42,554 nt of DNA from assembly GCA_964453885.1 (NCBI GenBank), contig CAYVPU010000001.1, positions 1 through 42,554 of the forward strand, written 5' to 3'. The DNA is from an uncultured Anaerolineae bacterium. Lineage in GTDB: Bacteria; Chloroflexota; Anaerolineae; CAYNKW01. The notes below the pieces were generated by a model. It was not told the origin of the DNA. It searched no databases and saw only the letters and a program-made list of their open reading frames with translations. The position numbers and the translations under genes were made by a program. This document shows positions 18,197 through 40,080 of this stretch, piece after piece. Positions within the stretch are counted from its first letter, which is position 1. Every line of letters begins with the position of its first letter.

Positions 18197-20026
18197 TCAC
18201 GGACTGATCACCAGCGGCGCCTCGCTGTACCATCCCGCGACGTTGAGACCATCGTCTGCCTCGGCGTAGATGTAGTAAGATCCGGAAAGACCAGAGGGGA
18301 TAGTCCACCGGTATACGTTTTCGGTGGGTGCTTCTGGATCATAGTTTCTAACAACCAGGGGCAGATAGATGAAATGAGGGCCGGGGGGCGGCGTGCCACC
18401 ACCAGTGCCTGGCGCCAGGATGGCGATAGTGTCCACGAAATTATCGGGGTCCTGGTCGTCATCGTATTTCAGGGTAATGGTCATTGGGCGGTCGCTGGCC
18501 TGGAGAGTCCACTCGATGTCGTAGTCACCGCTGGCCTGGGCAGTCGGGTCGGCGGTGAGCAGCACATAGTCCACGTGTATGTCAAAGTCGTTGGTCCCTG
18601 CCTCCATGAAGTCAAAACGCAATCCTGTCTTGGTCCCTGTCCAGCCGGGGCCAGGTCCGGGAGCCCCGTCCAGGTACCCTTGGGAAAGATCCACAGTATA
18701 GGTGTTCCATCCCTCCCAGATGATGACGTCGTTGAGCGTGTTCATATCCCTCGTATGGTCGTAGGGGTATTCAACAAAGTAGTGAAAGCGGGTGACCCAA
18801 CCATTTGCGGAGATCAGACGATCGTAGCTGTTCGTCCAGTCTCCTTCAGCGTGCCACCGCCAAGTGAGGTATTTGTATTTGCTGGCGTCTATAGGTTTCT
18901 TTACCTTCACCAACAAGTAGATGAAACTCTCCGCGCTAACCACGCGAGCGTGCATCTGTCCGTCGAAGGAGACGTTGTTCAGGCCATGCCACGTCCAGTC
19001 CCAGATGCCGTCACTCAGCACGTCGTTCCAACCATCCATGTCCCAGGGATTGTCCACCACGGCTGTGGCATAGTCTTCCCCGCTGGTCATACTGGGCGCA
19101 GAAAAGTCGAGAATGGGCGCTGGCACGACGGTCAGCGGTCCGCTGCTGTAAGCACCGTCGCCGGGGTCATCATCGCTGTGCTTGATGTAGATGTAATAGT
19201 CGCCCGGCGGGAAGGCTGCCGTCTTCCAGGTGAAACTGCCGTCGTCGGGTTCGTTGACGGCGATCTGGGCAATGGTGCCGTTGCTGAAATTCGTGTCGTC
19301 GTCGCAGTAGATGTCCACCGTCCCACTGTCAGGGCCAGTCCAGGTGACCTCAAAAGTGGGAGAAGTGTCGGGGTCGGTCAGGCGTATCCAGTCGAACTGA
19401 ATCTCGCCGCCCGCTGCCTCCGGAAAGATTCGCAGGCCCTGCATCTGCCCACTCCAACCACTGCCCAAGGTCGTGGTGTAGACGTTCCACCCCGCGTAGG
19501 CATCTCTTGTCCCAATCGTATTCTCCCCATCTGCAATCAAGCCAGCGAAGGACGTCAAGTAATATTCTGTACTGCTTGGAGGGAGGTGCAGGCGAAAGCT
19601 GAGTTGGCTGTAGGTGTCTGCGTCAATGGGGTACTGGGTTCCGATGGGGCCAATGTTGGCGGCACCCGTGTTAAAGCCGGGATATTGAATAAACACACTG
19701 CCGGTGCTAGCCCACGAACCCCCACCGTCGGCAAAGGTGCCTTGCCAGATCCCGTCGGACACAGAGATGTCGCTGACGTATACCTGCCAACGGAGATCCA
19801 GGCGGTCGTTCATATCCCGAGGGTCACCCAGGACCCGGGTGAAAAAGTCGTCTCCCTCGGGAATGACATCGGTGGTCGCGCCTGAGGGGCTGGTGACATC
19901 CACGGTCGCCTGAGTGCCAATGGACGCGGCGAAGGACGGTTGCCAGCTTTCTCCTCGGCCAACGGCCACAAGAAACAGAAAGCAGATCAACAAGCCAACA
20001 GTTCGCCAGTGCGGTCTCTGTCCCAT
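18197..20026 (-). CDS. Secreted beta-rich protein with two tandem (jelly-roll-like + Ig-like) modules
   Basis: Start set at ATG 20026 with a GAAAGGAAAGGG purine tract upstream (ORF-track 20056 is TTG). Signal peptide MGQRPHWRTVGLLICFLFLVAVG. The internal duplication is visible as FDWIRLTDP...GDYYIYIKHSDDDPGDGAYSSGPLTVV versus VDYVLLTADP...GSYYIYAEADDGLNVAGWYSEAPLVIS. Confidence 0.7.
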   Translation of the reverse strand: MGQRPHWRTVGLLICFLFLVAVGRGESWQPSFAASIGTQATVDVTSPSGATTDVIPEGDDFFTRVLGDPRDMNDRLDLRWQVYVSDISVSDGIWQGTFADGGGSWASTGSVFIQYPGFNTGAANIGPIGTQYPIDADTYSQLSFRLHLPPSSTEYYLTSFAGLIADGENTIGTRDAYAGWNVYTTTLGSGWSGQMQGLRIFPEAAGGEIQFDWIRLTDPDTSPTFEVTWTGPDSGTVDIYCDDDTNFSNGTIAQIAVNEPDDGSFTWKTAAFPPGDYYIYIKHSDDDPGDGAYSSGPLTVVPAPILDFSAPSMTSGEDYATAVVDNPWDMDGWNDVLSDGIWDWTWHGLNNVSFDGQMHARVVSAESFIYLLVKVKKPIDASKYKYLTWRWHAEGDWTNSYDRLISANGWVTRFHYFVEYPYDHTRDMNTLNDVIIWEGWNTYTVDLSQGYLDGAPGPGPGWTGTKTGLRFDFMEAGTNDFDIHVDYVLLTADPTAQASGDYDIEWTLQASDRPMTITLKYDDDQDPDNFVDTIAILAPGTGGGTPPPGPHFIYLPLVVRNYDPEAPTENVYRWTIPSGLSGSYYIYAEADDGLNVAGWYSEAPLVISP

Positions 20027-20098
20027 GGTGTTCCCTTTCCTTTCATGATGATCCAAAAGGGATGGCCGTTGCCGACCATCTCCCCACGCCGTTAAGAC

Positions 20099-20127
20099 AT
20101 TATACCATGTCTGTTAAAATGCGTCAA
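20099..20127 (-). promoter_or_regulatory. Near-consensus promoter for the secreted-protein gene
   Basis: On the minus strand: TTGACG (20122..20127), 17-nt spacer, TATAAT (20099..20104), with an extended TG. Confidence 0.6.
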
Positions 20128-20238
20128 TAGGTATAAAGCACCAAAGATTTATCCTGTTCGCTGGGAACGATATTCAAAGCAGGCTGTCTGAAGCTGTATC
20201 AATGGACGGACTTAAGTGGCACAACCGAGGAGAGTTCG

Positions 20239-21603
20239 TCAGGGAAGGCCAATGACGATCGGATGCCCCCAGCCTGCCCAGTCCCAACTGTTGTTGCCAC
20301 GAGGGTAGGTGAGCAAAGTGATCACAACCTCTTGACCGGCATAGCTGCTCAAGTCTATCAGTTCGTCAAACCAGCGTTGGTCGCCGGGGTTGTGCCGGGG
20401 ATCCACCGTCCGCCAATAGATCTGCTCGAAACCCTGGCCGTCATCAAGAATGACCTGAAACTCTACGCCATCTCCCTCTTCCTGCCATACTTTTGGGGAG
20501 AGGGAGACGCTGAAGGACAAGCGTGCCTCCCGTGGCAATGTCAAGTGATAAGACACTTTTGAGGGAGGGTGCATCCAGAGCACAGGTTTTTCTCCCTCCG
20601 GAGTAGAGAACCAACGAGGCGTGACGTATCCTGGATTTCCTGGCGGTGTTTCCACTACTGTGTTCTGGCTGTCTAACATGGCGATGAAATCATAGACTAC
20701 TTGAGGGCTTGCGGGGAAATCAGGGGTAATATCGCCTCTTTTCAGCTTTGTTGTACCCAATTGCCACCTATTCTGCGTCACACCTGTGATCAGGATGGTA
20801 ACTATCACGACTCCCAAAATCCCGAGGCCAAGGTTCTTTCCAAAAAGGGCAGCGTTCCAGGGTCGCCGGCCGTCCTTGGGCCAGTGAAGGGAATAAGCCA
20901 AGACCACCATGACTAGTGCGAGGTTGAGCGCGACCAGGGCTACCAGAGAGCGCCCTTGGAACAAATAAGGTTTGTACTGGCTCATTCGTCGCATCACCAG
21001 ATCGGCTCTCTCTCTCCAGGGAGCTGTCGTCAGGCGAATCACCTGGCCCAGTGCACGCAGCGACGTGGGGCGTGTGTAAAGCGCCATCACCACGTCTCCA
21101 GCAATCGCCCGTCCGTTCAGCGCCAATCTGCGCCTTGCGTCAGAAGCAGCGGACTGACGGCTGAAAACCACTGCCGGAGATTGTGCTTCCGACAAATTCG
21201 GAGCCAGAAGCCTCAGCTCCACGGTTTTGCCCGAGCTGTGTTCCAGAGGCGGAAAGCGGAACGAGTACCTCGTTGGCTCTCCGGTGTCTTGTAGAGGAAT
21301 CTCGCCAGAGTAGGCCGGCTCACCGCCCGGTGCGATCACTATGGCTGTCATTCGTTCGGCGCGGCCGGGGTTGCGCAGCCAGATGTCAACGCCGGCCAGG
21401 TCATCGGTCGGCGCGATGAAACACTGGCTGACGACGTTGGCTCCATAGATGTCGGCCAGGAAGAGCGCTGATTCGAGGGAATTGGACGCTCCCTGCACCG
21501 GCCAGGGGGAGAGAAACGCAATGCCGAACAGAATCGCGCTCATGAGGATGGTTATTACGGTTATCCAAGATTGTCGCCGTCTGACGATGGCAGTCTTTAC
21601 CAC
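20239..21603 (-). CDS. Membrane protein: TM helix, beta-domain, TM region, extra C-terminal extracytoplasmic domain (partner of the upstream GT-C)
   Basis: ORF-track start 21642 is TTG and overlaps the upstream gene by 26 nt. GTG at 21603 has AAGGGG about 10 nt upstream. Hydrophobic segments are WITVITILMSAILFGIAFL, LVALVALNLALVMVVLAY and LGLGILGVVIVTILITGV. The N-terminal domain is collinear with the 37864..38547 product. Confidence 0.6.
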   Translation of the reverse strand: MVKTAIVRRRQSWITVITILMSAILFGIAFLSPWPVQGASNSLESALFLADIYGANVVSQCFIAPTDDLAGVDIWLRNPGRAERMTAIVIAPGGEPAYSGEIPLQDTGEPTRYSFRFPPLEHSSGKTVELRLLAPNLSEAQSPAVVFSRQSAASDARRRLALNGRAIAGDVVMALYTRPTSLRALGQVIRLTTAPWRERADLVMRRMSQYKPYLFQGRSLVALVALNLALVMVVLAYSLHWPKDGRRPWNAALFGKNLGLGILGVVIVTILITGVTQNRWQLGTTKLKRGDITPDFPASPQVVYDFIAMLDSQNTVVETPPGNPGYVTPRWFSTPEGEKPVLWMHPPSKVSYHLTLPREARLSFSVSLSPKVWQEEGDGVEFQVILDDGQGFEQIYWRTVDPRHNPGDQRWFDELIDLSSYAGQEVVITLLTYPRGNNSWDWAGWGHPIVIGLP

Positions 21604-21616
21604 TTTGTTCGGCCCC

Positions 21617-23077
21617 TTACAGATAATATCTGGGCACGACAAACCCCCAGAGACAAATCAAGTTAAAAACCACTGCCCCAATGCGAAGCGCCCGGTGTCC
21701 CCAGGGTTGCAGGGGCCGTGGTAACAGCGTGAGGATACCCAGAGCCAAGAGGGACGAGTTGGCAACCAGCGAGGGCAAGAAATAGCGTCCCTGGCGAGGC
21801 ATAAAGTAACCGGTCTGGCGGGTAAAGGTGAACCCCACGATAGCCCAACTGCCTAACAATGAAAGGAGACCAACCGTCAGCAGGGCAACCTGCCACACCT
21901 GACGATTCAGTTGTCGTCGCCACAGGGTTAGAACCCAGTAGACAATCAGTCCCAAGGCAGCCAACACAATGATCCAGATTAGAACCTCATAGTAAACTGG
22001 CGCGATGCGTGTATCCAGCCAGCCAAACTGGGCCCAGTAAGAGCGGTGGAGGCCCTCTGACAGTGCGTGGCGGTACTTTTCAAGGTATTCCCAGAAAGCC
22101 AGATCAAGTGGCATGCCTTCAGCCTGTCGCTGCGTTGTGTAGAGCATCCCTCCGCCGGCGCTCAAATTGCGATATATCCACCAGCCACAAGCGCTCAATG
22201 TCGAAAGGGGAATCAGCACAGCCCTGGCAACTAACCGCCGCCAAAGCTCGCGGTCCCAGATCAGTCTCAGAATCAATGCCAAGCCGACAACAGACGTGAC
22301 GCTCAGCACGTGCGGTTTGGTCAGAACGGAGGCGCCCAGGGCTATGCCCGTTGCCAAAGCTAGATTCGCGCTCAGTCCCTCTTTAGCGATTCTCATGCTG
22401 AGATAGAGCACCGCCGAAAAGATCAGAGTCGCCAACACATCGGTGTTGATTACAGATCCGATGTGAGTGAACATGGGCTGGAACCCCACCAGCGCGGGCA
22501 CGGTCAGGTGCATAGCCTGCCGATTGGGCAAGGCCAATTTCGCCACGTGGTACGAAGTCAGCGCAGTGAGCGTTAGCAGCAACACGGAGAACACCCGTAC
22601 AGCAGTGGCGCGGCCGAGCAAGTCTGCATGATAGAACAGACGGTAGACGCCTGCCCCAAGCAAGTAATACAACGGCGGCTGATGCATCGCCGTGCTGATT
22701 TTTCCAAGCTCTACCGAGGTGCGTGTGGCCGCGGATAACGAACGGATGGCCTTCTCTCCAGGACCTTCGAAGGAATCTGAAAAAACTTGACGGTCATTTG
22801 GATGGAAAGCCACAGATATTGTCTGCATTTTATCCATGGACAGCAAGATCTCGTCAGAGTAAAAGCAGTCCGTTACTGCAGGGAGTTGGCCATGTTCGGC
22901 GATGAACGCTATCGTACCAAAGTGGCTAGGTTCATCGGGCGCCTGCCAGAGAGGCACAGCCACGGCCCACAGCACTCCATTGACAAATACCAGAATCAAG
23001 AGCACGCAAATTGCCTGTCTTTCATAGTCCAGGGAACGCAGCATTGATCGTGTTTTTTCCTTCAATCCGTCTGGCAA
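21617..23077 (-). CDS. GT-C fold integral-membrane glycosyltransferase (DUF2142-like)
   Basis: 486 aa with more than 10 predicted TM helices. The first external loop carries WQAPDEPSHFG, an acidic PDE motif as in DUF2142/ArnT-like polyprenyl-phosphate-sugar transferases. TTG start with GGAG 7 nt upstream. Confidence 0.65.
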   Translation of the reverse strand: MPDGLKEKTRSMLRSLDYERQAICVLLILVFVNGVLWAVAVPLWQAPDEPSHFGTIAFIAEHGQLPAVTDCFYSDEILLSMDKMQTISVAFHPNDRQVFSDSFEGPGEKAIRSLSAATRTSVELGKISTAMHQPPLYYLLGAGVYRLFYHADLLGRATAVRVFSVLLLTLTALTSYHVAKLALPNRQAMHLTVPALVGFQPMFTHIGSVINTDVLATLIFSAVLYLSMRIAKEGLSANLALATGIALGASVLTKPHVLSVTSVVGLALILRLIWDRELWRRLVARAVLIPLSTLSACGWWIYRNLSAGGGMLYTTQRQAEGMPLDLAFWEYLEKYRHALSEGLHRSYWAQFGWLDTRIAPVYYEVLIWIIVLAALGLIVYWVLTLWRRQLNRQVWQVALLTVGLLSLLGSWAIVGFTFTRQTGYFMPRQGRYFLPSLVANSSLLALGILTLLPRPLQPWGHRALRIGAVVFNLICLWGFVVPRYYL

Positions 23078-23111
23078 ATCGGTCTCCAGTTATGGTAGTT
23101 TCAACCACAAA

Positions 23112-24245
23112 TTAAAAGTTCTTTAGAAAAGACATGACCATCAAATAGGCCCGTAGTAGCGACTTGGGCATCTTGAAGACCAGAGCGTTGAGTCGTTTGC
23201 TGAGTGACAGGCGGTAATTGAGCAACACCATGGCGGCTGCCAGGTAGTCGTTCCAGTGGGATCGCCACGTCCCGTCATACCTGATCTTGAAGCCGAACAA
23301 CTGGCTCAACCGGACTCTGGCTGCTTTGCCGCGTTTCATGGGGATCAAACCCCGGCGTTGCGCGCGGAAAATGGTCTCCGGCGGCACTCGTTGCATAGTC
23401 AGGCAGCTCTCTTTAATCATCTGCTCTATCCAGGTGGCTGCCTGGGGGGTGCGCGCGATAGCGATGGAATGTTTGATAGGATGCTGCCTCAACTCTGGCA
23501 ACCAGGCGTCGCCGCAGGTCAAGTCGGCGTAATCCCCTATTGGGTCTTCGCAGTGCAGGCACTTTATCTCACACTCGAAATGGAGATTGCGGTAGAGACT
23601 AAAGTCTTGAAAGGGGAAACTGACCTCTTGACCATCCCGGAGCCACAGTTTTGTCTGGCCTCGCCAATGTCCCTGCCGGAAGCGCAAGTCGGCAATGTCT
23701 TGTTCCTCGAAGCCTTTTTTCCCGAGCACTTTTTTCAATAGTCCCTTGGAGGAACTGCGCCCGCACACCAGGCCGATGCGCAGCCTGATCTTTTCCGCCA
23801 GGACCGGATCCCGCGCCTCCCAGCGACGGAGTCGCTGTAAATGACAGGGCAGCGCCACGATAGCCAGATGGCCTGTCACTTTTGCCAGTCGCCGGAATTC
23901 GCGCATCAGTGGAAACTCTATATAGATGCTCGATTGACCGCTGAGAATCTCCTGCCGGTTCCGGGCAATGAAAGGCTCTGCTTCGATACGATCGTCCCGA
24001 ATGACGATCCGGCTGATCAATGCTCCTTGAATGATTTCCTGTTCCAGGAGATAGATCAGCAATGCCGAAACTAGTCCTCCCGACGCCGCCTGGATTCGCA
24101 TCTCCTCCTGGCTGGCGTAGCCAAGGTAGCAGGCCTCAAACTGGCCCAGGTATCGCCGGACAGTTGTTTCATCGGGCGTGCCGAACATTTTCCCGGCGAC
24201 GCGCATCAGCAAGTCTTCGAGCCTGTAGCTTGTGTTTCTCGCCAA
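23112..24245 (-). CDS. Coenzyme F420 hydrogenase/dehydrogenase beta-subunit-like (FrhB/FdhB family) protein
   Basis: ASGGLVSALL, ALPCHLQ and CLHCEDPIGDYADLTCGDAW motifs match the FrhB N- and C-terminal domains. No N-terminal ferredoxin domain is present. TTG start. Confidence 0.75.
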   Translation of the reverse strand: MARNTSYRLEDLLMRVAGKMFGTPDETTVRRYLGQFEACYLGYASQEEMRIQAASGGLVSALLIYLLEQEIIQGALISRIVIRDDRIEAEPFIARNRQEILSGQSSIYIEFPLMREFRRLAKVTGHLAIVALPCHLQRLRRWEARDPVLAEKIRLRIGLVCGRSSSKGLLKKVLGKKGFEEQDIADLRFRQGHWRGQTKLWLRDGQEVSFPFQDFSLYRNLHFECEIKCLHCEDPIGDYADLTCGDAWLPELRQHPIKHSIAIARTPQAATWIEQMIKESCLTMQRVPPETIFRAQRRGLIPMKRGKAARVRLSQLFGFKIRYDGTWRSHWNDYLAAAMVLLNYRLSLSKRLNALVFKMPKSLLRAYLMVMSFLKNF

Positions 24246-25517: not shown

Positions 25518-26478
25518 GCTTCCATCCCTCCCTCTCAGCCAGCGTGCTGCTGGAAGGGCGCTTGCTCAAGATGTAGCTGAACAACGGCCCCAACATCAGG
25601 CTGGCGGCGATCATGGCACTGCGATTCAGGCCTGCAGAAAGGATGCTGAGGACGCCCTCCACACCCAGCGTCTGCGAAGCAAGCACCAATATCATCTCGG
25701 CAATGCCCAGCCCTGCCGGTGTGACCGGAATCATGGCTGAGATCAGAAAGAGGGTACTGACGATCAAGCTTTTGACCAGGGGCAGGTCTTTGCCAAAGGC
25801 GGCAAAAGAGAAGTGAATCATCAGCAGCGTCGTCCCCGCGTTCACGACCGACAGCGCGATCAAAGTCACCAGCGTGCCGGGGTGTGCAGCGATGATCTGC
25901 CAACCCTCGACTACCTGGTTGATGCTCTCAGCCCACCTTCCGGGCAAGCGGGGCAATCGTCTGACAACAACAAAAAACGTCACAGGCAGCGACAGGCACG
26001 CGGTGAGAAAGAGCGTTAGCACAGGATTGGTGACGCCGAAACACAACCACAAGGCCACCATAGCCAGCAGCCCAATGATAGCGTTGGTGGAAAAGGACAA
26101 TACATACAAGATGGCGAGGGTGCTAAGAAAAAGAGAATAGGGCAGGCTGTGCTTAGTCTTCAAATATACCCCCCGGATGGCTGCCCCGCCCCGGAAGGGG
26201 CTCAAGTAGTTACCCATAGACGTCATCGCCGACAGCCCAAACCACTCCAGGAAGTCAAGGCGTATCTCTAGGCTGCCCTGTATCACCTTGGTGAACAATC
26301 CCATGACCAGTAGTTTGAGAATGGCCAGTCCGAAAAGGAGGGCCAGCCACCCAGCAGACAAGTTGCTCAACAGTGCCAGGTCCTCAGAGTGGCGATAGGC
26401 GTACAAGGCAGCCCAGGTGAGAAACCCTATCACGATGAGCAGGGGAGCATATTTGCGGAGCATTCGCAGAGTCCTCAT
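25510..26478 (-). CDS. Flippase-like membrane protein (UPF0104 / lysyl-PG synthase TM-domain family)
   Basis: 322 aa with about 8 TM helices. The segment GNYLSPFRGGAAIRGVYLK is characteristic of the MprF flippase-domain family. It sits directly downstream of a GtrB-like GT2. Confidence 0.65.
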   Translation of the reverse strand: MRTLRMLRKYAPLLIVIGFLTWAALYAYRHSEDLALLSNLSAGWLALLFGLAILKLLVMGLFTKVIQGSLEIRLDFLEWFGLSAMTSMGNYLSPFRGGAAIRGVYLKTKHSLPYSLFLSTLAILYVLSFSTNAIIGLLAMVALWLCFGVTNPVLTLFLTACLSLPVTFFVVVRRLPRLPGRWAESINQVVEGWQIIAAHPGTLVTLIALSVVNAGTTLLMIHFSFAAFGKDLPLVKSLIVSTLFLISAMIPVTPAGLGIAEMILVLASQTLGVEGVLSILSAGLNRSAMIAASLMLGPLFSYILSKRPSSSTLAEREGWKHA

Positions 26479-30052: not shown

Positions 30053-30238
30053 CCTGATTCCTCTTGCGCTCGTTGTGTCAAGCGCTCATCGTACCCTGGG
30101 ACAGCATCACTGGTGCTGAACCGCGATTTGAACAGCAGATCACGAACGGAAGCACGATTGCTTTCACGCCCCCCCCTGTTTTGGTTATATCCAACACGTC
30201 AACTCGTGGCCACTGCGGACCGCCCACCGGTAGCATAA

Positions 30239-32639: not shown

Positions 32640-34042
32640 GAACTTGAACCTCCTGTTTTTTGTGGCTTGATGGGATCGTCGCTCTGGGCAACCACCCCGT
32701 TTTTGGACGCAAACTTTCGATCTATGCCGAATATCCGGGCCAGTTCCTCTTGGGCCAGGACATACTCGTCGCCATCGTGGGCCGGCGTAAAGGGCTCACC
32801 GAACAGGGCAAGAATCTCTTGATCGGACCGGCGGCGCATGGCCTGAATCTGCTTTCGTTTCTCCAGCAGATTCGGCAAGTCTACGACGACGTCGTTGGCC
32901 GCGATGACGTAGCTCAGCACGATGTCGGGCGCTTCCACGTCGTCGTGACTGAGGTGGATCAAACGCCACCTCAGCCTCGCTAGCCACCGCCGCCAGCGAC
33001 GACCCAATTCCTGCCTGGTTTTTGCGATCAAAGCCCTAATGTTGCCTTGTCTGAAAGCGTGCCACGCTTCCCGGCGATAATAGGCCGCATCGTAGACAGG
33101 AGTCTTGGGCGAACTCGGCCTGGCGGCAGCCGGGCGCTCGGGACGCGGCGGTGCTGGTGGCCGCCTTTGCGCCGTTGACTGTTGATGGAGACGCAGGAAC
33201 TCTTTACCAGAGTTGAGGTGCGCCCGCTTGAACATCAGCAACAGGGCTACCGGCAGCACGCGCTTCAAGTTCTCATCGTCATAGTTCTTGATGAGGCTTC
33301 GAAGGGCATTTCGCTCATACAGCACAAGTTTCCGGCCCATGTGGATCGCACGCCAGAACCCGTGCCCCCGATGATAAACGACGGAACGGCTGGTAAAGGT
33401 GACGCTGTAGCCCATGACCCAAAGCCGCCAACCCAGGTCGGTGTCCTCAAAGTAGGCAAAGTGATCCTCGTCGAACCCACCCGATCTGAGGAACACTTTC
33501 CGGTCAATCAGCATTGCGCCGCCGCAAGGCGCCAGCACTGGACGATCCTGCCGGTATTGTTTAGACACAGGCTCGCCACAGCCGATCTGCCAGGCATGGC
33601 CACAGAAGCTCAGCACCATGCCAGCGTAATCTATTCGTTGGCCCTCCCAATCCAGGATCATTGAGGTGGTGCAGACGATGCCTTCTTCTGGCCGCAGGGG
33701 CTTGACTAACTCTTTGAGCCAGGCATGATCCACTCGCATGTCATTGTTGAGAAAGGCAACGTATTGACCTTGGGCCCTCCACGCTGCCATGTTGTTACCT
33801 TTTGAAAAGCCATAGTTGCGGTCGTGGCGGACGATTCTTACCTCCGGGAAATGGCGTTGGACAAAGGACACTGAATCATCGGCAGAGGCGTTATCCGCCA
33901 ACATCAGTTCCAATTTGTCACGGGGATAATCCAAGGCCTGCAAAGAGACAAAGCAAGGTTCCAGGTGCTCCAGACCGTTGTAGTTCAGGACGATCACGGT
34001 TACACTGGGCCAGTGGGCCGTGTTTGTGCCGATTTCTCTCAT
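32636..34042 (-). CDS. GT2 glycosyltransferase (rhamnosyltransferase-like), second paralog
   Basis: VTVIVLNYNGLEHLEPCF, LADNASADDS and NNDMRV motifs. The start is set at ATG 34042, which overlaps the upstream stop as ATGA (34039..34042). Confidence 0.85.
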   Translation of the reverse strand: MREIGTNTAHWPSVTVIVLNYNGLEHLEPCFVSLQALDYPRDKLELMLADNASADDSVSFVQRHFPEVRIVRHDRNYGFSKGNNMAAWRAQGQYVAFLNNDMRVDHAWLKELVKPLRPEEGIVCTTSMILDWEGQRIDYAGMVLSFCGHAWQIGCGEPVSKQYRQDRPVLAPCGGAMLIDRKVFLRSGGFDEDHFAYFEDTDLGWRLWVMGYSVTFTSRSVVYHRGHGFWRAIHMGRKLVLYERNALRSLIKNYDDENLKRVLPVALLLMFKRAHLNSGKEFLRLHQQSTAQRRPPAPPRPERPAAARPSSPKTPVYDAAYYRREAWHAFRQGNIRALIAKTRQELGRRWRRWLARLRWRLIHLSHDDVEAPDIVLSYVIAANDVVVDLPNLLEKRKQIQAMRRRSDQEILALFGEPFTPAHDGDEYVLAQEELARIFGIDRKFASKNGVVAQSDDPIKPQKTGGSSS

Positions 34043-36567
34043 TGGCTTCCCCATCGCGACCAGGCCCATCCCTGGATCTTCCACTCCGCGTACTGCCGCA
34101 ATCTACCTTTGAACGCTGCCCAACCACCCGATCGCACGGCTCGCCATCCCTGGGCGAGACGCTGGTGCCACGAGCGCTCGGCTTCAGAGAAACTATCGCA
34201 TCGGGAAACGGTGGGAGGACGCCACAGTTGCTGGTCTGGAGCCAGGCGTGGCTGGCGGCAGAATTCGATCAGCGGCTCCAGGACGCGCTCCCACTGATAA
34301 CGCTCTCGCACTTGGGAAAAACTCTTGTGATACTGCTCCCGCAAATCAGACTTTGAGACCAGATCCAGGATCGCCTGGGCGACGCCTTCCACGTCGCCAA
34401 AGTCCACCACGTGCCCCAGGTTGTACTGCTGTACCAGCTCGCTGGTTACGTCGCCAGTGCTGACTATCATGGGCAATCCAGCCCAGATGTAATCGAGTAT
34501 CCGAGTCCGAAGGCTGTACCGCGTTTCTATGTGAGCAGCATGTAGACTAAGGCCGACGTCGGCTTCAAGAAGGTAGTTTTCCCTATCTTTGTAGGGCACC
34601 CAGTCGTTGAAAAAGACGTAACGGTCCCGCAAATTCAGTTGCTCGCTGAGGCGGACTGTCTCTTCAATCTTGCGCATATGCACGGTGTTGGGACTGGGAT
34701 GCCGAATCCCACCGAAAAAAAGCTTGACATCGGAGCGGTGTTTCACCACCACGTCCATGGCCCAGACGATGACCAGGGGGTCCAGCCAGTCGTAGATGCC
34801 ACCGCCCCATAGGAGCACTTTGTCGTCGGCATTTATGCCGGGCCAGACCCCTTTCAGCACTTGTTTTCTGTGGGCCGGGGAACGCTCGGGCAGTCCGAAT
34901 GCAGCCACGTCAATGAGCTTGCGCAGTTCTTGATCGTGAGCAAAGGTGTCGGGGTTTACGCGATTGAGGGCGCTCAATCTGCCCAGCCAATAGTCGCGCT
35001 GTTGCTCGCTGGCACAAAGGAAAAAGTCGCCAGTGACCAAGAGATCGTTGATAACCGAGGCCGATTTGTGGTGGGTGCTCCACCGAACCAAAGGATGTTG
35101 TTCGGAAAACAGGTGTAGGTTTTCCAGGTCGAAGGAATGGGAAAGAAGCACCACCAACGGGCGAGAGATTGTCCTCAGCCCCGGGTGTTTCTCGAGGACA
35201 TTGCCCGACGTCACGATGACATTAGAAGCCTCTGCCAGTCCCCGCAACGCGGCATCGTCGTACTCCACGATGGCAAAATCATTGGACGTGACGTCGCTGG
35301 CGTAAGGCGAGGCCAGGGTCACAGGGAAGTAGCGGCTGAGCACTCGCGCATACTCCCAATCCCGCGCCGCCTGCCCGGCCATCTTGCGTCCAATTCTGTC
35401 GTCGCTGACGATTAGCACGCGGTTGGCCGATCTCTCGCCGAGCAGCGACTCCAAGCCCCAGGCATCAACAAGAAAATCCTGCGTGGCCCGGTAGGTGTTC
35501 TGAGCCAAACTAGGCTCAAAGGGTTGGCCGAACCGCTCGAATATGTCGCTGTCGGGGCGGCGGCGGAGCGCCTGGACTGCCCGGCGTTTCTCCATGAAGC
35601 GGGGCATGAGGTCTACAACCTGACTGATGCTGGCAAAATTGTCCAAGAGTGACCGGCGCACGACGACAAGACCTTCGCCAGACATCTGCACCGGGATGGC
35701 GCGGGGCGAGTCGTACAGAAGGGGTTTCAGTTCACGGGATTCCGAGCGATACTGCGTGACGTCCTCAACTTGCGTCAAGTAGAGGCGGCGCACCCATAAC
35801 ATCAATGCCACCGGTAAGACCCGTTCCAGGTTGTGCTCATCGTAGTTCTTTACCAGGGCCAACAAGGCATCCCGCTCGTGGAGAAGAGAGCGATCACTTG
35901 CCGGCGTCTTTTCGGCCATCCGTGCGACGGCGGCGGGCACGTACATGACTTTGTAACCCATCACCCACAGTCGCCATCCCATGTCAAGATCGGCATAACT
36001 GCCCTGAAAATCCTCGTCAAACCCGCCGGCATCTAGAAAAATCTGGCGGTCTATGAGCATCGCCATGCTGCTCGGCGCGAGAACGGGCTCTGGTTGCATT
36101 GGGCCATGGAGTGAATCCCGAACGTCACGGGGAAACAGGTGTCCGTGAAAGTTTATGGTCACACTGCCCGATATGACTTTTTCACTCTCTTGGGTCAAAA
36201 TCCTCGAGGTCGCGCAGATTGCTTCGCCCGAGCGCAACGGTTCCATCAGCGCCGTGAGCCAGTTTGGGGATACCTGCAGATCGCTGTTCAGAAAAGCGAG
36301 CCATTCGCCCCGGGCAGCCTGAGCGGCCAGGTTGCGCACCCTGGAGACACTGAGGCTTTGGGGATACCGGACCACACGCAACTGCCGATAGCGAGATTGC
36401 GCACGCTTGACGGAGCCATCGGGGGACCCATGATCCACCAGGATCAACTCGAGACGATCTGGTGGATAGTCCAACGAGTGAAGGGTGGCCAGGCAGGCAT
36501 CCAATTGTGCCTTGCCATCATTATTCAAAACAAGCAGGCTAACCTGCGGGTGTCGTTCAGAGTCCAT
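34039..36567 (-). CDS. Bifunctional GT2-GT4 fusion glycosyltransferase
   Basis: 842 aa. The N-terminal half is GT2 (VSLLVLNNDG, LVDHGSPDGS, NSDLQV). From about ANRVLIVSDD (DNA near 35.4 kb) the C-terminal half is collinear with the stand-alone GT4-like 27393..28751 product. Confidence 0.85.
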   Translation of the reverse strand: MDSERHPQVSLLVLNNDGKAQLDACLATLHSLDYPPDRLELILVDHGSPDGSVKRAQSRYRQLRVVRYPQSLSVSRVRNLAAQAARGEWLAFLNSDLQVSPNWLTALMEPLRSGEAICATSRILTQESEKVISGSVTINFHGHLFPRDVRDSLHGPMQPEPVLAPSSMAMLIDRQIFLDAGGFDEDFQGSYADLDMGWRLWVMGYKVMYVPAAVARMAEKTPASDRSLLHERDALLALVKNYDEHNLERVLPVALMLWVRRLYLTQVEDVTQYRSESRELKPLLYDSPRAIPVQMSGEGLVVVRRSLLDNFASISQVVDLMPRFMEKRRAVQALRRRPDSDIFERFGQPFEPSLAQNTYRATQDFLVDAWGLESLLGERSANRVLIVSDDRIGRKMAGQAARDWEYARVLSRYFPVTLASPYASDVTSNDFAIVEYDDAALRGLAEASNVIVTSGNVLEKHPGLRTISRPLVVLLSHSFDLENLHLFSEQHPLVRWSTHHKSASVINDLLVTGDFFLCASEQQRDYWLGRLSALNRVNPDTFAHDQELRKLIDVAAFGLPERSPAHRKQVLKGVWPGINADDKVLLWGGGIYDWLDPLVIVWAMDVVVKHRSDVKLFFGGIRHPSPNTVHMRKIEETVRLSEQLNLRDRYVFFNDWVPYKDRENYLLEADVGLSLHAAHIETRYSLRTRILDYIWAGLPMIVSTGDVTSELVQQYNLGHVVDFGDVEGVAQAILDLVSKSDLREQYHKSFSQVRERYQWERVLEPLIEFCRQPRLAPDQQLWRPPTVSRCDSFSEAERSWHQRLAQGWRAVRSGGWAAFKGRLRQYAEWKIQGWAWSRWGSQ

Positions 36568-36598
36568 TATAGATGACCTTGTAACTCATTCCTAAACA

Positions 36599-37867
36599 TC
36601 ATCGCTCTGGATAGGGAAATGCTGCTAATTGGCGGCCATCCTTCGCGGTGAGATGCCAGGACGCGGGGATGTGAAACATGCCATGACGTTCCTTGATCTC
36701 TTTTGCGGGCACGACGATGAGCTCGGCGCAATAACGCCTAAAGTCGTAGGCGTGGAGTCCCTCGTAGTCGTGGATGGCAGCGGTGACCAGGTAACGGCCA
36801 GGCAACAGCGGCAGCGAGGGAATACGGTAGTCCATGTACCCAGAACCCTCAATGCTTCTTACCTCGTAACCAGAGAAGACATTATTGGGGCCGCTGACCT
36901 GGGCGCCGCTCTCGTGGTGAATGGCCAGCCCAAACTGGGGCTGCTCGATGCGCTGATGCGCCTGATAGTGCAGGCGCAAGGTTATTTCCTCTCCGGTGAC
37001 AAAGGCGCGCCGGGGTTTAGCCGCCGCATCGAGCAATTCAACCCGTTCCAGTTCCACCTCGCGGCTTCCCCAACGATGTGCTTTGTCAGTGGCATCGGCC
37101 GGCGCAAAGTCAGCTGTGCCCTGGGCCACTATACCATCCAGGTAAGCGTGGGTGACGCGCTCTACATCGCCGGCCGCCTGAATCTGCCCTTGCTCGACCC
37201 AGAGAGCTCTGTCGCACATGCTACGAATCTTTTCCAGTTCGTGAGATACAAAGAGCACGGTCACGCCTTGGCACTTCAACTCGCGGATCTTGTCCAGGCA
37301 TTTGTTCTGGAAGGTGTGATCGCCCACAGCCAGCACCTCGTCAATCAGCAGCACTTCGGGGTCCGAGTGGACGGCAATAGAGAATCCCAGGCGCATGTAC
37401 ATGCCCGAGGAATAAAGGCGCACCGGCGCATCAATGAATGAACCTATGCCGGCAAAGTCTGCGATGTTGTCAAAGCGCTTTTTGATCTTCCTCCGGCTCA
37501 GCCCCAGGATAGAGCCATTGAGAAAGACGTTCTCCCGCCCCGTCAGGTCAGGGTGAAAGCCAACGCCCAACTCTAGCAGTGCCGACACCCGTCCATGGGT
37601 GATGACTTGGCCGGAGGTAGGTTCGATGACCCGCGAGATGAGTTTGAGGATAGTACTCTTGCCCGCGCCGTTGGGGCCAACAAGGCCCACCATCTCGCCG
37701 GGTGACACTTGAAAGCTCACGTCCCGCAGCGCCCAAAACTCCTCGCGAGGGCCGTGCCCTTTGAGGCGGAGGACGTTCAGGGTCAACTCTTGGAAAGAGC
37801 GTGGCTTGTCCCGATGGATTAGAAATCGTTTTGAGACACGGTCAAGACGGACGGCCGGTTTAGTCAA
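36599..37867 (-). CDS. wzt: Polysaccharide ABC-transporter ATP-binding protein with C-terminal glycan-binding-type extension (Wzt-like)
   Basis: Walker A GPNGAGKST, signature YSSGMYMRLGF, Walker B LLIDEVLAVGD, then a beta-rich C-terminal domain of about 170 aa. The TTG start overlaps the upstream stop (TTGA at 37864..37867). Confidence 0.85.
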   Translation of the reverse strand: MTKPAVRLDRVSKRFLIHRDKPRSFQELTLNVLRLKGHGPREEFWALRDVSFQVSPGEMVGLVGPNGAGKSTILKLISRVIEPTSGQVITHGRVSALLELGVGFHPDLTGRENVFLNGSILGLSRRKIKKRFDNIADFAGIGSFIDAPVRLYSSGMYMRLGFSIAVHSDPEVLLIDEVLAVGDHTFQNKCLDKIRELKCQGVTVLFVSHELEKIRSMCDRALWVEQGQIQAAGDVERVTHAYLDGIVAQGTADFAPADATDKAHRWGSREVELERVELLDAAAKPRRAFVTGEEITLRLHYQAHQRIEQPQFGLAIHHESGAQVSGPNNVFSGYEVRSIEGSGYMDYRIPSLPLLPGRYLVTAAIHDYEGLHAYDFRRYCAELIVVPAKEIKERHGMFHIPASWHLTAKDGRQLAAFPYPER

Positions 37868-38547
37868 TGGTCTTCCTCAAAAAACAATCTGGTAGTCTGG
37901 CTAAGGAGCCATGCAGCACCACCGATGGTCGCCATGGCCAAGAGAATGTAAAGCCACCGCTCGCCCCAGATAGAGGGTTTATTCTCGACCAGGCGATCCA
38001 GCAGAGCTGTCGCCTTATCACGGTAAGACCCCTGATAGTAGGCCTGAAAGTGCAGATCCCCTCCTGCCGGTACGCCATTGCGAAACATCATTCCCTGCAG
38101 GTACAGGTCCCGAGGTTGCATCCAGATGGTGATGGCATCGCCTTCGACCGACGACGGGGATTCGACACAGAAGTAAAATGTCCGCCCCGCCGAGTCCGGG
38201 ATGGGCGAAAAAGTGAATGAATGATAAGCAAAGTCTTCCACCTCGCTGGCGTTAAGAGGCAGGGTAAAGACGTCGTCGGGCGCGTCCGGGGCCGTCTTTA
38301 GATAAAAGATCACCTCGCGCGCGTTTGGGCGGGCATATGTGCCCATAAAGATATCAATGCGGTGGAGGTGGTTGTAGCGAGCCAGAAAGGTCTGGCCCAC
38401 CGTCTCTCCGCTGACGATCTGGCCCACTGATTCGGTGTGGGTGTCTTGGGTTTCGATGGGCATTTGGATCTGATTCAGAGCCGAGTAGGCAACGATGACT
38501 AGACCCAAAGCAAGGGCAACCCAGGTGAATACCATCTCACGGCGCAT
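37864..38547 (-). CDS. Bitopic membrane protein: N-terminal TM, extracytoplasmic beta-domain, C-terminal TM (partner of the upstream GT-C)
   Basis: Start set at ATG 38547 (GGAG 9 nt upstream), giving MRREMVFTWVALALGLVIVAY. C-terminal helix WLYILLAMATIGGAAWLL. The middle domain is collinear with the N-terminal domain of the 20239..21603 product. Confidence 0.6.
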   Translation of the reverse strand: MRREMVFTWVALALGLVIVAYSALNQIQMPIETQDTHTESVGQIVSGETVGQTFLARYNHLHRIDIFMGTYARPNAREVIFYLKTAPDAPDDVFTLPLNASEVEDFAYHSFTFSPIPDSAGRTFYFCVESPSSVEGDAITIWMQPRDLYLQGMMFRNGVPAGGDLHFQAYYQGSYRDKATALLDRLVENKPSIWGERWLYILLAMATIGGAAWLLSQTTRLFFEEDH

Positions 38548-39997
38548 GGCTACTGCTCCGTTGAGAGTAGATGCGCACAGGGTTGAGTGGGTAGCCGATT
38601 TCAAAGAGTCGAGCCACAACTTTATATTCTCCCTTGAACCATTCACTCTGAATCATCTCGGCAAACCATCCTGCAGGGACAACCAGATAGTCTGGGTGAT
38701 AGTTCTCTACGGCCCAGAGGGTCGTATCGTCATACGTGCTTTCAGGAGCCATCTGCTTGGCGACCTCTGGTTGAATCAATCCGGCAAAGCCAATTATGGA
38801 ACGGCGAGCGTAATAGCCAATGATACCCACCTCAAGCATTCCTACTGTCGCATCTTGAGGCGTATTGGCAGCCAGCCACTGGCCAGCTTTTCGATAGGCG
38901 ACCTGGCGCCGATCTGAACGTTGCAAACGGTACATTGCAGATTTTGCCTGGGGAGCCAACAGTAAGAGTAGTCCCAGGACCAACAACGCTGGTGCGTAGG
39001 GGCGCAGCAAACGACAACGCCTGGCAATCCACCGCGAAAACGCCACAAGACCCAAGCTTGCCAGTAGTGCGATGGCGGGAGCCAAGGGCCCATAATACCA
39101 AAAATACCGTGAGACGCCCAGAAAAACGTAGGCCAGGAGATACAATCCCGTCCAGAGCAACAAGGGCACCCACTTCCACAGCCGGTTACCGATCACCCAC
39201 GCTGTCCCAAGGATGATAAAGGGAGCGTAGAGGCAATAGAGGGGCACCTTCCCATAGTTGCGCAACAGCCTTGAGAATCCCTGCCAAAAACTGTCGCTGA
39301 TCAGCATGGTGGCCTGTTGCTGCTTGGTGAGTAGGGTGGTGGGAAAAGGTGAACCGAAAAAGAACCAAGCATAAAGATACCAAGGGGCTATCATCAATCC
39401 ATACAAGAGAATCTGTCGCCAGGGGATTCGCCGATGGGTGACTAGATAATGGAATCCCAGAACAGCGGCCACCAGAACACCATCGGTGCGGCTGAGGGCC
39501 ATCAAAGCAGCAAAGAGAGCTGCAAGACTAAGATGATCGGCGGCGTAATAATAGAACGCACCCAGGCCCAGCATGGTGTAAAAGCACGTCTCAGCGCCAA
39601 AAGTGGACAGCAAAAGCGGCGAAAGGCCAAATAACAAAGCCGCGCCAGCGCCCACAACCGGTTGACTCAACCGACGACACAGCAAGTAGAGAAACAAGGC
39701 ACCAATTTCCAGGCTCACTGCGCAGAGAAGGTTGCTCAAGCGGGGCAAATCTAGCCAGACATGTCCCAGCAGAGCCAGCAACAGCGTGTACAGCGGAGTG
39801 GTCGTGCTTTGCACTCGCAGCCCCACATTGTAAACGAACCCACGGCCCTCCATCAGATTCCGCGCGTATCTGTACGTAATGAACGGATCATCGTACCCAT
39901 AGTCGGCCAAGCCCAGGAACAATAGCAAGGCCAGGCCAGCGACGGTGCACACCAATGCCAATGTATGGCGAGTCCCAACTGTCTGTAGTTGTGACAA
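38537..39997 (-). CDS. GT-C fold integral-membrane glycosyltransferase (ArnT/PMT_2-like)
   Basis: Multi-TM protein with the first-loop acidic motif YGYDDPFITYRYARNL and a soluble C-terminal domain. The start is set at TTG 39997, with GGAGG at 40010..40014. ORF-track starts at 40318/40165 lie upstream of the promoter at 40052..40080, and the 40318 start also overlaps xseA. Confidence 0.65.
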   Translation of the reverse strand: MSQLQTVGTRHTLALVCTVAGLALLLFLGLADYGYDDPFITYRYARNLMEGRGFVYNVGLRVQSTTTPLYTLLLALLGHVWLDLPRLSNLLCAVSLEIGALFLYLLCRRLSQPVVGAGAALLFGLSPLLLSTFGAETCFYTMLGLGAFYYYAADHLSLAALFAALMALSRTDGVLVAAVLGFHYLVTHRRIPWRQILLYGLMIAPWYLYAWFFFGSPFPTTLLTKQQQATMLISDSFWQGFSRLLRNYGKVPLYCLYAPFIILGTAWVIGNRLWKWVPLLLWTGLYLLAYVFLGVSRYFWYYGPLAPAIALLASLGLVAFSRWIARRCRLLRPYAPALLVLGLLLLLAPQAKSAMYRLQRSDRRQVAYRKAGQWLAANTPQDATVGMLEVGIIGYYARRSIIGFAGLIQPEVAKQMAPESTYDDTTLWAVENYHPDYLVVPAGWFAEMIQSEWFKGEYKVVARLFEIGYPLNPVRIYSQRSSSHAP

Positions 39998-40051
39998 AAT
40001 GAAAGCTAACCTCCAAGATGGCAACTCCTGGCACGGCCCAGAGCGGCAGCT

Positions 40052-40080
40052 ATTATAGCATCTTCTGGGGAGAAGTTCAA
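40052..40080 (-). promoter_or_regulatory. Near-consensus promoter heading the minus-strand glycan supercluster
   Basis: On the minus strand: TTGAAC (40075..40080), 17-nt spacer, TATAAT (40052..40057), with an extended TG. Confidence 0.55.

Follow-up and report, generated by a model that had tools for sequence, protein, structure and literature searches.

A probable mosaic locus for a cell-envelope glycan in an uncultured member of the Anaerolineae, proposed to join ABC-type polymer synthesis to lipid-linked decoration

Layout and composition of the locus

The window analyzed here is a stretch of 42,554 nucleotides (nt) from an uncultured Anaerolineae bacterium (contig CAYVPU010000001.1), and the subject of this work is a run of 17 consecutive open reading frames (ORFs), all on the minus strand, that extends from 18197 to ∼39997 in the ORF listing of the window. 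The genes are labeled g1 (upstream-most, ∼39997) to g17 (last, 18197). They probably make up a mosaic cell-envelope glycan locus in which synthesis of an ATP-binding cassette (ABC)-type polymer (g3 to g10) would be coupled to a lipid-linked decoration centered on four genes (g11 to g14). An earlier annotation made from the letters of the window alone (here the original prediction) had described one co-directional 17-gene supercluster with these two components. The number of genes, their common strand, and every overlap that it named can be read directly from the sequence, and its domain calls were all reproduced with Pfam and NCBIfam. It had also raised a Chloroflexota host as a possibility, and the nearest named relatives, judged by homologue names, are indeed Anaerolineae or Chloroflexota metagenome-assembled genomes.

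How tightly are these genes packed? From g1 to g17, the sixteen measured spacings are −11, −4, 31, −4, −4, 2, −4, 186, −4, 20, 9, −8, 15, 34, −26, and 212 nt, so the sole real gaps are those between g8 and g9 (30053..30238, 186 nt) and between g16 and g17 (212 nt), the same two that had been singled out before. The stop of g1 overlaps the start of g2 by 11 nt (ATGCGCCGTGA, 38537..38547), the g2 stop and the g3 start share the 4 nt TTGA (37864..37867), ATGA junctions lie at 34039..34042, 32636..32639, 31105..31108, and 28748..28751, and g12 and g13 overlap by 8 nt (ATGCCTGA, 25510..25517). The overlapping junctions, eight in total, represent translational coupling. Homologues together with the metagenome gene caller fixed the starts of g2 at 38547 (227 amino acids [aa]), g5 at 34042 (468 aa), and g7 at 32172 (355 aa). 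The start of g1 is ambiguous among 39997, 40024, and 40165, the last being the choice of the gene caller.

The impression that the membrane-protein genes are less rich in guanine plus cytosine (GC) held up on computation. The GC fraction and the GC fraction at third codon positions (GC3) were 0.541 and 0.602 for g1, 0.548 and 0.630 for g15, 0.566 and 0.635 for g16, and 0.554 and 0.658 for g2, and the remaining cluster genes ranged from 0.556 to 0.63 (GC) and from 0.67 to 0.83 (GC3). The shift is small and visible in both measures. The dip in GC is partly due to membrane-protein composition, and the GC3 shift fits with gene swapping among the loci of relatives.

Genes for an ABC-type polymer

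Gene g3 (36599..37867) encodes a Wzt-type ABC ATPase with a C-terminal carbohydrate-binding domain, as evidenced by matches to ABC_tran (78 bits) and to Wzt_C (PF14524; 96 bits against a cut-off of 30.4); TagH and galactan-Wzt models reached 190 to 220 bits, under their equivalog cut-offs. It is followed by g4 (34039..36567), an 842-aa fusion of family 2 and family 4 glycosyltransferases (GT2 and GT4) recognized by Pfam and by its paralogy with g9 plus g10. GT2-GT4 fusions of this kind are also found in the related loci L009, L011, and L013 (related loci are given by L numbers throughout). Pfam identified two further GT2 enzymes, g5 (32636..34042; 468 aa from the ATG at 34042) and g9 (28748..30052), the latter joined by its ATGA overlap to the GT4 gene g10 (27393..28751), which homologue searches placed in a highly conserved Chloroflexota/Actinomycetota family. 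The GT2/GT4 enzymes had been called triplicated. This is correct for GT2, with three paralogues that are 31 to 46% identical (40% between the N-terminal part of g4 and g5, 46% between g5 and g9, and 31% between the N-terminal part of g4 and g9), but GT4 is present in only two copies (the C-terminal part of g4 and g10; 46% identity).

Between these lie three sugar-nucleotide genes. The product of g6 (32175..32639) is an RmlC/EvaD-like cupin of the NDP-4-keto-6-deoxyhexose epimerase type that matched dTDP_sugar_isom (PF00908) above its cut-off with 60 bits; its best PDB matches were EvaD and RmlC (E = 1e-8), and the rmlC equivalog TIGR01221 gave 31 bits against a cut-off of 156. Gene g7 (31105..32172) encodes a divergent nucleotide-sugar epimerase/reductase of the short-chain dehydrogenase/reductase (SDR) type (Epimerase model, 131 bits; best PDB match 6vo6, E = 2e-28). 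That g8 (30239..31108) encodes RmlD, the dTDP-4-dehydrorhamnose reductase, is indicated by TIGR01214 at 291 bits, over the cut-off of 224. We considered g7 as a stand-in for RmlB and rejected it on its score with the dTDP-glucose dehydratase equivalog (60 bits against a cut-off of 365) and on its motif SSCSIY...YSGSK, which we take to be without the TDE motif or acidic pair of the dehydratases.

To which route does the GT2/GT4 pair belong? The g10 family comprises >3,600 homologues that are ∼50% identical across phyla (Chloroflexota and Actinomycetota). We counted neighborhoods in 80 genome loci with a g10-like gene, 39 of which have at least 8 kb of flank on both sides. In 48 of the 80, a GT2 gene lies upstream of the g10-like gene and ends no more than 400 nt from it, Wzt is present in 30 of the 39 fully flanked loci, and the g11 to g14 genes are present in only 1 of the 80. 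These frequencies assign the pair to the ABC route. The family itself is not restricted to ABC-type loci: in L082 (CP070818.1 2149869..2171233, a complete Anaerolineae genome) a g10 homologue with 73% identity stands with only a GT4 fragment and a 987-aa YfhO, in otherwise unrelated surroundings (DNA polymerase III beta and GidB).

The glycan locus may also reach beyond g17. Two GT4 genes (Pfam) on the plus strand, 15684..16796 and 16820..18151, converge on it, and relatives of the first lie directly upstream of g10-like genes in other contigs of Anaerolineae (L082, L085, and L087); the locus thus probably reaches as far as 15684.

A recurrent cassette for a lipid-linked sugar

The four genes after g10 encode a different kind of machinery. 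The product of g11 (26488..27372) is a polyprenyl-phosphate glycosyltransferase of the GtrB/ArnC/DPMS/AglJ type: it matched ArnC over its full length (9hwj, E = 2e-25) and also DPMS and GtrB, and it has transmembrane (TM) segments at its C-terminal end (residues 218 to 280). Among NCBIfam models, AglJ, PpgS, and ArnC matched, the best being AglJ with 137 bits, under the cut-off. Gene g12 (25510..26478) encodes a stand-alone protein of the MprF-flippase type (LPG_synthase_TM/UPF0104/YbhN) with 91.7 bits for PF03706 (cut-off 33.4) and 53 bits for TIGR00374, the "flippase-like domain" (cut-off 43). Because its 322 aa hold the TM domain alone, without the aminoacyl-phosphatidylglycerol synthase domain, and the MprF equivalog failed (18.6 bits against 600), we regard g12 as MprF-flippase-like and not as MprF. 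No flippase of the GtrA, SMR, Wzx, or MATE type was found among the window proteins, and g12, of a different family, is the only candidate. Sequence searches of the PDB with g10, g12, and g15 returned nothing useful.

The next two genes may modify the sugar. A polysaccharide pyruvyl transferase is encoded by g13 (24261..25517; PF04230, 94.6 bits against a cut-off of 25.3), with CsaB (71 bits against 213) and WcaK both under their cut-offs, and an FrhB-like flavin/Fe-S protein with the FrhB_FdhB_N and FrhB_FdhB_C domains is encoded by g14 (23112..24245). Cysteines C225, C229, C232, and C244 of g14 are invariant in the homologue alignment. A metagenome scan with the g14 alignment yielded only five loci, and in each of the related loci observed the g14 homologue either adjoins a pyruvyl transferase or is fused to one. 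In L093 (10962..13379), the g13 and g14 homologues form a single 805-aa polypeptide, which is a Rosetta-stone link between the two.

The order g11-g12-g13-g14 is contiguous in seven lineages, namely the window, L083/L084, L093, L095, L099, and the JGI contig FN94w89W, and was seen in part in four further contigs, L094, L100, L101, and L102. Beside it stands a large membrane protein or a glycosyltransferase of the GT-C fold, which is DUF2142 in the window, L100, and L101, YfhO in L083 and L093, GT87 plus PMT_2 in L095, and DUF6798 in FN94w89W. On this comparison of gene orders, g11 to g14 form a conserved cassette, and the GT-C or large membrane protein beside it is interchangeable. Pyruvylation had been listed as an additional activity of the locus; the pyruvyl transferase domain of g13 agrees with this, but g13 and g14 are no free-standing extra, being part of the cassette and fused in L093.

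What might such a cassette make? Our tentative suggestion, which we hold to be possible though less likely than not, is that g11 to g14 are an undescribed mobile cassette that builds an acidic sugar on a lipid carrier, either as a pyruvate ketal or as a 1-carboxyethyl (lactyl) ether (compare MurA/MurB), that the product is flipped by a family new to polyprenyl sugars, and that it is received by the adjoining GT-C enzyme. By the same analogy, we hypothesize that g14 could reduce an enolpyruvyl intermediate to the 1-carboxyethyl ether. The literature on FrhB-like proteins tied to pyruvyl transferases or carboxyethyl sugars yielded only a gene-count mention in Klebsiella cps loci.

Two GT-C enzymes and a β-sandwich accessory domain

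Two different GT-C enzymes had been proposed for the locus, and both are real. The predicted structure of g1 (38537..39997; AlphaFold2 [AF2], pLDDT 95.4) gave 26 best Foldseek matches that were all GT-C: ArnT (5f15, TM-score 0.61), STT3, AglB, PglB, ALG9/12, and AftB. Across 40 homologues, D36, D37, R170, and K225 are invariant and D172 is nearly so. Direct family matches of g1 are weak, 19 of the 40 homologues weakly match AftB, and this large family, with ∼11,000 representatives in a search of 1.84 billion, is without a Pfam model. Some of its members bear extra Wzt_C-like, GH43, or GH32 β-propeller domains. The second enzyme, g15 (21617..23077), is a GT-C-type membrane glycosyltransferase of DUF2142 (PF09913, 65.5 bits against a cut-off of 30.1), and at its position L100 and L101 keep DUF2142 whereas L083 and L093 have YfhO. 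YfhO is the known GT-C enzyme of lipoteichoic-acid glycosylation. BLASTP detected no similarity between g1 and g15 or between g1 and the 522-aa protein of L091.

Each GT-C gene is accompanied by a protein with a common domain. The 227-aa bitopic protein g2 (37864..38547; homologues of 227 to 233 aa) was modeled by AF2 (pLDDT 81) as a TM helix, a β-sandwich, helices, and a second TM helix, and Foldseek gave weak matches to phage receptor-binding folds and to the carbohydrate-binding module (CBM) folds CBM6, CBM4, and CBM35. The N terminus of the membrane protein g16 (20239..21642) resembles g2 (BLASTP, E = 9e-8; hidden Markov model [HMM] of the g2 domain, E = 1e-7), followed by more TM segments and an unclassified C-terminal domain; g16-like proteins share the g2-type domain, and homologues of g16 come after the GT-C gene in L083 and L093. 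The same HMM located the domain at the C termini of large GT4/WsaF-type enzymes (L083, L004, L005, and L075) and at the N termini of two large multi-TM proteins of a YfhO-associated or GT-C-like kind, one with DUF7657 (L075) and one with 17 TM segments (L011); outside the window, its sites include L083 3770..4198 and 6834..7259, L011 11459..14080, and L075 14295..16862. DUF7657 occurs together with YfhO in L083, and stand-alone g2-domain proteins adjoin DUF2142 in the actinobacterial loci L009 and L013. Since the HMM recovers it in these several settings, the g2 domain is a recurrent accessory domain of glycan loci without a Pfam model, and the β-sandwich of g2 and g16 is a candidate for a new glycan-binding domain family.

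Components absent from the locus

The original prediction stated that the window lacks an initiating phosphoglycosyl transferase, Wzm, RmlA, and RmlB. Both Pfam scans and a dedicated Wzm HMM agree. The HMM was built from 14 Wzm neighbors of Wzt in related loci and checked with Pfam on L011; it detected no Wzm in the six-frame window or in any Anaerolineae-type locus, and the same HMM finds Wzm in 32 other loci. In L011, a Pfam-confirmed Wzm (14102..14905) lies 6 kb from Wzt, and in three Chloroflexia-type loci (L025, L073, and L081) Wzm is fused into proteins of 600 to 725 aa. Scans of the main window ORFs gave no match for a phosphoglycosyl transferase (PF00953 and PF02397), RmlA, RmlB, or a methyltransferase, and the first three are also missing from the Pfam tables of overlapping contigs. 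Relatives L089, L091, L093, and L094 do carry a methyltransferase. Genes for Wzm, RmlA, RmlB, the priming transferase, and a LytR-CpsA-Psr (LCP) ligase probably lie elsewhere in the genome.

The Anaerolineae-type loci without Wzm near Wzt are the window, L003, L005, L016, L089, L091, L093, and L094. In the window, L003, L089, and L091, the gene directly upstream of Wzt encodes a 2-TM protein with a g2-type domain; the corresponding gene encodes a glycoside-hydrolase-like/CARDB protein in L016 and L094 and a pyridoxal phosphate enzyme of Cys/Met metabolism in L005. Could g2 or g1 replace Wzm as the membrane part of the transporter? We set this idea aside, since g2 spans the membrane no more than twice and carries a domain that recurs on cytoplasmic GT4 enzymes and on large multi-TM proteins, g1 is a GT-C enzyme, and in L011, another Chloroflexota locus, 6 kb separate Wzm from Wzt.

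Transcription units and the secreted protein g17

A sigma-70-like promoter had been proposed upstream of g1 at 40052..40080. The site is present on the minus strand (TTGAAC-17-TG-TATAAT, 10/12 matches) and lies back-to-back with a promoter-like site for xseA on the plus strand (40102..40130; TTGACA-17-TATGAT, 11/12 matches) in a 192-nt divergent region. Such matches are, however, no more common than in shuffled sequence (5 found against 2.0 expected and 9 found against 7.7 expected, not above chance), and the g1 site stands as a candidate. A site in the g16/g17 gap that had been overlooked scores better (20099..20127, minus strand; TTGACG-17-TG-TATAAT, 11/12 matches plus TG). When the spacers were aligned (window 20061..20160, minus strand; L083 19395..19450; L093 17300..17400), four features were conserved in L083 and L093 while the remaining spacer had diverged: the two core elements (−35 hexamer and extended −10), a block of the form AAATCTTTGGT upstream of them, and, downstream, a GC hairpin (20061..20080 in the window, in the g17 leader shortly before the start codon). 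By this conservation, the region upstream of g17 has the look of a strong promoter under regulation, followed by a structured leader.

Because these promoter features are kept while the rest of the spacer diverged, we treat g17 as a separate unit that ends at a strong, terminator-like GC hairpin (18164..18136 on the minus strand; 13-bp stem, 10 GC pairs), common to g17 and the convergent GT4 gene. On the minus strand, neither a promoter-like nor a terminator-like site was found in the 186-nt gap between g8 and g9, and the equivalent spacing in L093 is 2 nt. A single 17-gene polycistron, as originally envisaged, is at odds with the conserved g17 promoter, and the transcription units are most likely g1 to g16 and g17, judged from the sequence.

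The g17 gene (18197..20026) encodes an acidic, apparently secreted protein of 609 aa from the ATG at 20026, with a pI of 4.1, 16% serine plus threonine, and an N-terminal hydrophobic segment that, judged by eye, is compatible with a signal peptide. It matched no Pfam or NCBIfam family and no PDB sequence, and BLASTP detected no similarity between g16 and g17. Homologues that are 56 to 64% identical follow a g16-like gene in L083 and L093.

Mosaic structure among relatives

Are the two halves of the locus inherited together? In L093, one strand carries, in order, Wzt, GT4, g6, g7, a methyltransferase, g8, g9, g10, g11, g12, the fused g13-g14, YfhO, and g16-like and g17-like genes. Identity to the window is 73 to 90% for g6 to g8 and g10 to g14, 53 to 54% for Wzt and g9, 36% for g16, and 64% for g17. 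L094 carries Wzt, a methyltransferase, GT2, GT4, GT2, g11, g12, and g13. Other relatives hold one half only: L083 has g9 to g14, YfhO, and g16-like and g17-like genes, with different upstream glycosyltransferases and no Wzt or rml-like genes within 10 kb, and L089 and L091 have a weak PMT_2-like protein, g2, Wzt, g6, g7, g8, and a methyltransferase, without g4 and g5. The cassette also travels in other company, beside two GT87 and two PMT_2 genes in L095 and between MarR and DUF6798 with a Wzx-type protein in FN94w89W; L099 shows the four genes g11 to g14, and L100 and L101 show g13, g14, and then DUF2142.

A fixed supercluster is therefore not what the relatives present, the halves being separate in L083 and in L089/L091. 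Nor are the parts simply unlinked, the finding that the original prediction had named as speaking against it, for both halves are linked in L093 and partly in L094. From these gene orders, we view the locus as a recombining mosaic whose two stages are linked in some lineages and separate in others.

A two-stage model and its alternatives

Our favored reading, to which we give a probability of roughly 0.6, is that this uncultured Anaerolineae bacterium carries here a mosaic locus for a cell-envelope glycan with two coupled stages, an ABC-type polymer and a lipid-linked decoration. A cytoplasmic ABC stage and a lipid-linked outside stage had been proposed before, and the comparative data fit both, since GT2/GT4 genes accompany Wzt in 30 of 39 loci and the GtrB-like and flippase-like genes stand beside an interchangeable GT-C. 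In the first stage, g4, g5, g9, and g10 would polymerize a chain on a polyprenyl carrier in the cytoplasm, as suggested by their families and by co-occurrence with Wzt. A 6-deoxyhexose for this chain would be finished by the g8 RmlD, the g6 epimerase, and the g7 SDR, and the C-terminal domain of the g3 Wzt may recognize the chain end for export with a Wzm encoded elsewhere. The second stage is drawn from the recurrent neighborhood, the g13-g14 fusion, and the replacement of DUF2142 by YfhO. Here g11 would load a sugar onto polyprenyl phosphate, and g13 and g14 would modify the lipid-linked sugar or the polymer by pyruvyl transfer combined with a redox step; the product might be a pyruvate ketal or else a 1-carboxyethyl ether formed by reduction. 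The donor would be carried across the membrane by g12 and its sugar transferred to the exported polymer by g15, aided by g16 with its CBM-like domain. Beside Wzt, the second GT-C g1 and the bitopic, CBM-like g2 could perform a second decoration or attach the polymer to its acceptor, and g17 would be separately transcribed, secreted, and probably abundant.

Several observations weigh against this model. The pathway is incomplete as seen, because Wzm, RmlA, RmlB, an initiating transferase, and an LCP-type ligase were not found in the window or in its flanks (−10 kb and +4 kb; 80-kb contig, L001). The literature reviewed contains no demonstrated flippase activity of stand-alone PF03706 proteins on polyprenyl-phosphate sugars. 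Both g6 and g7 score far under their equivalog cut-offs. In L083 the cassette and a GT2/GT4 pair occur without Wzt or rml-like genes within 10 kb, and in L095 and FN94w89W the cassette occurs in other glycan contexts; from these three loci it follows that coupling of the two stages is optional.

This last point invites the idea of separate systems that happen to lie side by side, with g1 to g8 making an ABC polymer, g9 to g16 another glycan, and g17 standing apart; g13 could then cap the ABC chain with a terminal pyruvate read by the C-terminal domain of Wzt, in the way that such a residue terminates the chain of an ABC-dependent Klebsiella O antigen (PMC10629545). In accord with this idea, L083 has the second half with neither Wzt nor rml-like genes, L089 and L091 have the series g2-Wzt-g6-g7-g8 followed by a methyltransferase, the L093 Wzt is 53% identical against 73 to 90% for its neighbors, and g8 and g9 are separated by 186 nt. 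Yet neither a promoter-like nor a terminator-like site lies in that gap, in L093 a mere 2 nt separate the g8 and g9 homologues, and Wzt, GT2/GT4, and the cassette share one strand with short spacers in L093 and L094. Moreover, genes of the g9/g10 family go with Wzt in other loci, which excludes a break at the g8/g9 junction, and g13 and g14 keep to g11 and g12 also in loci that have no Wzt nearby, which speaks against the capping role. We consider this arrangement quite unlikely. A dual chain of the Lactococcus type would use the same genes differently: g11 would prime an oligosaccharide, g9, g10, and other glycosyltransferases would extend it, g13/g14 would pyruvylate it, g12 would flip it, g15 would polymerize it with a WpsH-like g16, and g1 plus g2 (WpsJ-like) would attach it to the ABC-exported chain. 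It would account for two GT-C genes against one GtrB-like gene and for the position of g9-g10, which immediately precede g11 in the window, L083, and L093 and lie near it in L094. DUF2142 is the domain of the proposed WpsI polymerase and WpsJ transferase, and the topology of WpsH, two TM segments with a large loop outside, is also that of g2 and the N-terminal part of g16. The likeness to WpsH is one of topology only, however; the g2 domain folds as a compact β-sandwich, occurs fused to cytoplasmic GT4 enzymes as well, and is unlike a coiled-coil co-polymerase of the Wzz kind. With the g9/g10-type pair accompanied by Wzt and not by the cassette in most loci, and with the cassette lacking g9/g10 in L095 and FN94w89W, the dual chain seems to us unlikely.

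Could the acceptor instead be a protein? In this case, g11, g12, and the GT-C enzyme would glycosylate g17 as an abundant surface or S-layer-like protein, comparable to Streptococcus mutans Pgf or actinobacterial Pmt, perhaps with the ABC chain as well, comparable to the Geobacillus S-layer glycan. The conserved strong promoter and 5′ hairpin of g17, its signal-peptide-like N terminus (by eye), its low pI, and its serine and threonine content would suit such a target; in the window, L083, and L093 alike, a g17-like gene comes after those for the GT-C and the g16-like protein; g11 matches PgfS at 74 bits; and the Chloroflexota envelope is reported to have poorly defined protein or polysaccharide layers (PMC13319060). 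Against this stand the cassettes without a g17-like gene in L095 and FN94w89W (L099 is too short), the absence of an O-oligosaccharyltransferase of the Wzy_C/PglL type, and the lack of recognizable S-layer, SLH, or glycosylation-motif features, PDB match, or family in g17. Protein glycosylation is in our judgment quite unlikely, and we prefer the two-stage model, in which an exported polymer receives the lipid-linked sugar.

Relation to known systems

A likeness to streptococcal rhamnose polysaccharide and to the logic of Gtr-type and lipoteichoic-acid glycosylation had been noted, and the comparison sustains it. The Rgp/Gac/Wps systems of streptococci and lactococci (PMC9574508) share with the locus, as read here, Rml-type deoxyhexose enzymes, rhamnan-type polymerization by GT2/GT4 enzymes, ABC export, a GT-A enzyme loading sugar on undecaprenyl phosphate, a flippase or flippase-like protein, GT-C enzymes including DUF2142 for side chains, and, judged by topology, a 2-TM accessory protein. 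Their flippase is Wzx, whereas the flippase-like protein of the window is of the MprF/PF03706 type; a GacJ/WpsB-like activator was not identified here, and RgpF, RmlA, RmlB, Wzm (RgpC), TagO/GacO, and LCP were not found nearby. Unlike those systems, the locus has a pyruvyl transferase and FrhB-like pair within its lipid-linked module, and its host is a member of the Chloroflexota. Three-component glycosylation (GtrA/GtrB/Gtr* and CsbB/GtcA/YfhO) likewise employs a polyprenyl-phosphate sugar synthase, a flippase-type protein, and a GT-C that acts after export, and YfhO itself occupies the GT-C position in L083 and L093. Its flippases are GtrA, SMR, Wzx, or MATE where the locus has a PF03706 protein. 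Here, the cassette always comes with the pyruvyl transferase and the FrhB-like protein, and the GT-C comes with a CBM-like bitopic protein.

The archaeal AglD-type case (MJ1079/MJ1080; arCOG00899; PMC5898192) resembles the locus in its AglD/AglJ-like GT2, MprF-flippase homologue, and PMT/STT3-like GT-C; it is a prediction for N-glycosylation, without a pyruvyl transferase/FrhB pair or an ABC polymer, whereas the present locus is bacterial. The ABC pathways of Escherichia coli O9a, Klebsiella, and the S layer of Geobacillus stearothermophilus are alike in having Wzt with a C-terminal binding domain and multi-domain polymerases, and the methyltransferase beside Wzt or the rml-like genes in L089, L091, L093, and L094 recalls their capping. 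Unlike those pathways, the window has no methyltransferase or kinase terminator, no adjacent Wzm, and no WaaL or WsaB-type ligase.

The original prediction held that several parts are different or missing relative to known systems. The PF03706 flippase-like protein and the FrhB-like protein do differ, but the novelty is smaller than implied. For archaea, a neighborhood that joins an AglD-like GT2 and a PMT/STT3-like GT-C to an MprF-like flippase had already been predicted in 2015 (PMC5898192), and in lactococcal wall polysaccharide the DUF2142 GT-C enzymes are WpsI and WpsJ with WpsH as the 2-TM partner (PMC9574508, PMC12599335, PMC9746298). Three-component decoration of ABC-exported O antigens also has a precedent in the Citrobacter GT136 system (PMC11127046). 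What sets the locus apart is a bacterial PF03706 flippase-type protein, the embedded pyruvyl transferase/FrhB pair, the CBM-like partners, and the lack of an adjacent Wzm.

Anaerolineae, of which few have been cultured, abound in sludge, sediments, and hot springs. With the wall and surface layers of Chloroflexota poorly defined (PMC13319060), the locus offers a testable parts list for one Anaerolineae surface glycan. The proposed cassette, if true, would give roles to two widespread kinds of protein, the stand-alone MprF-flippase-like (UPF0104/YbhN) proteins and the FrhB-like proteins beside pyruvyl transferases, and it would add a flippase family to the three-component glycosylation scheme. 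The g2/g16 β-sandwich and the g1 family are candidates for new family definitions.

Flanking regions

No RNA family was found in the whole window (Rfam, gathering thresholds). In the contig extensions, the 4 kb on the plus side hold Mrp-type antiporter genes, and the 10 kb on the minus side hold a toxin-antitoxin pair, LppX, a major facilitator superfamily protein, DUF3352, and a response regulator. The overlapping European Nucleotide Archive contig L001 contains a run of N (12370..12470) just past the window end, within a membrane-protein ORF, where gene calls are unreliable. Unrelated neighbors in the window are a PhdYeFM/PIN toxin-antitoxin pair (544..1316, minus strand), a Ser/Thr kinase with a long tetratricopeptide repeat array (6973..9240, minus strand), and an Ogt-type methyltransferase (15167..15670, plus strand); MutS2 and CvpA separate these neighbors from the glycan locus.

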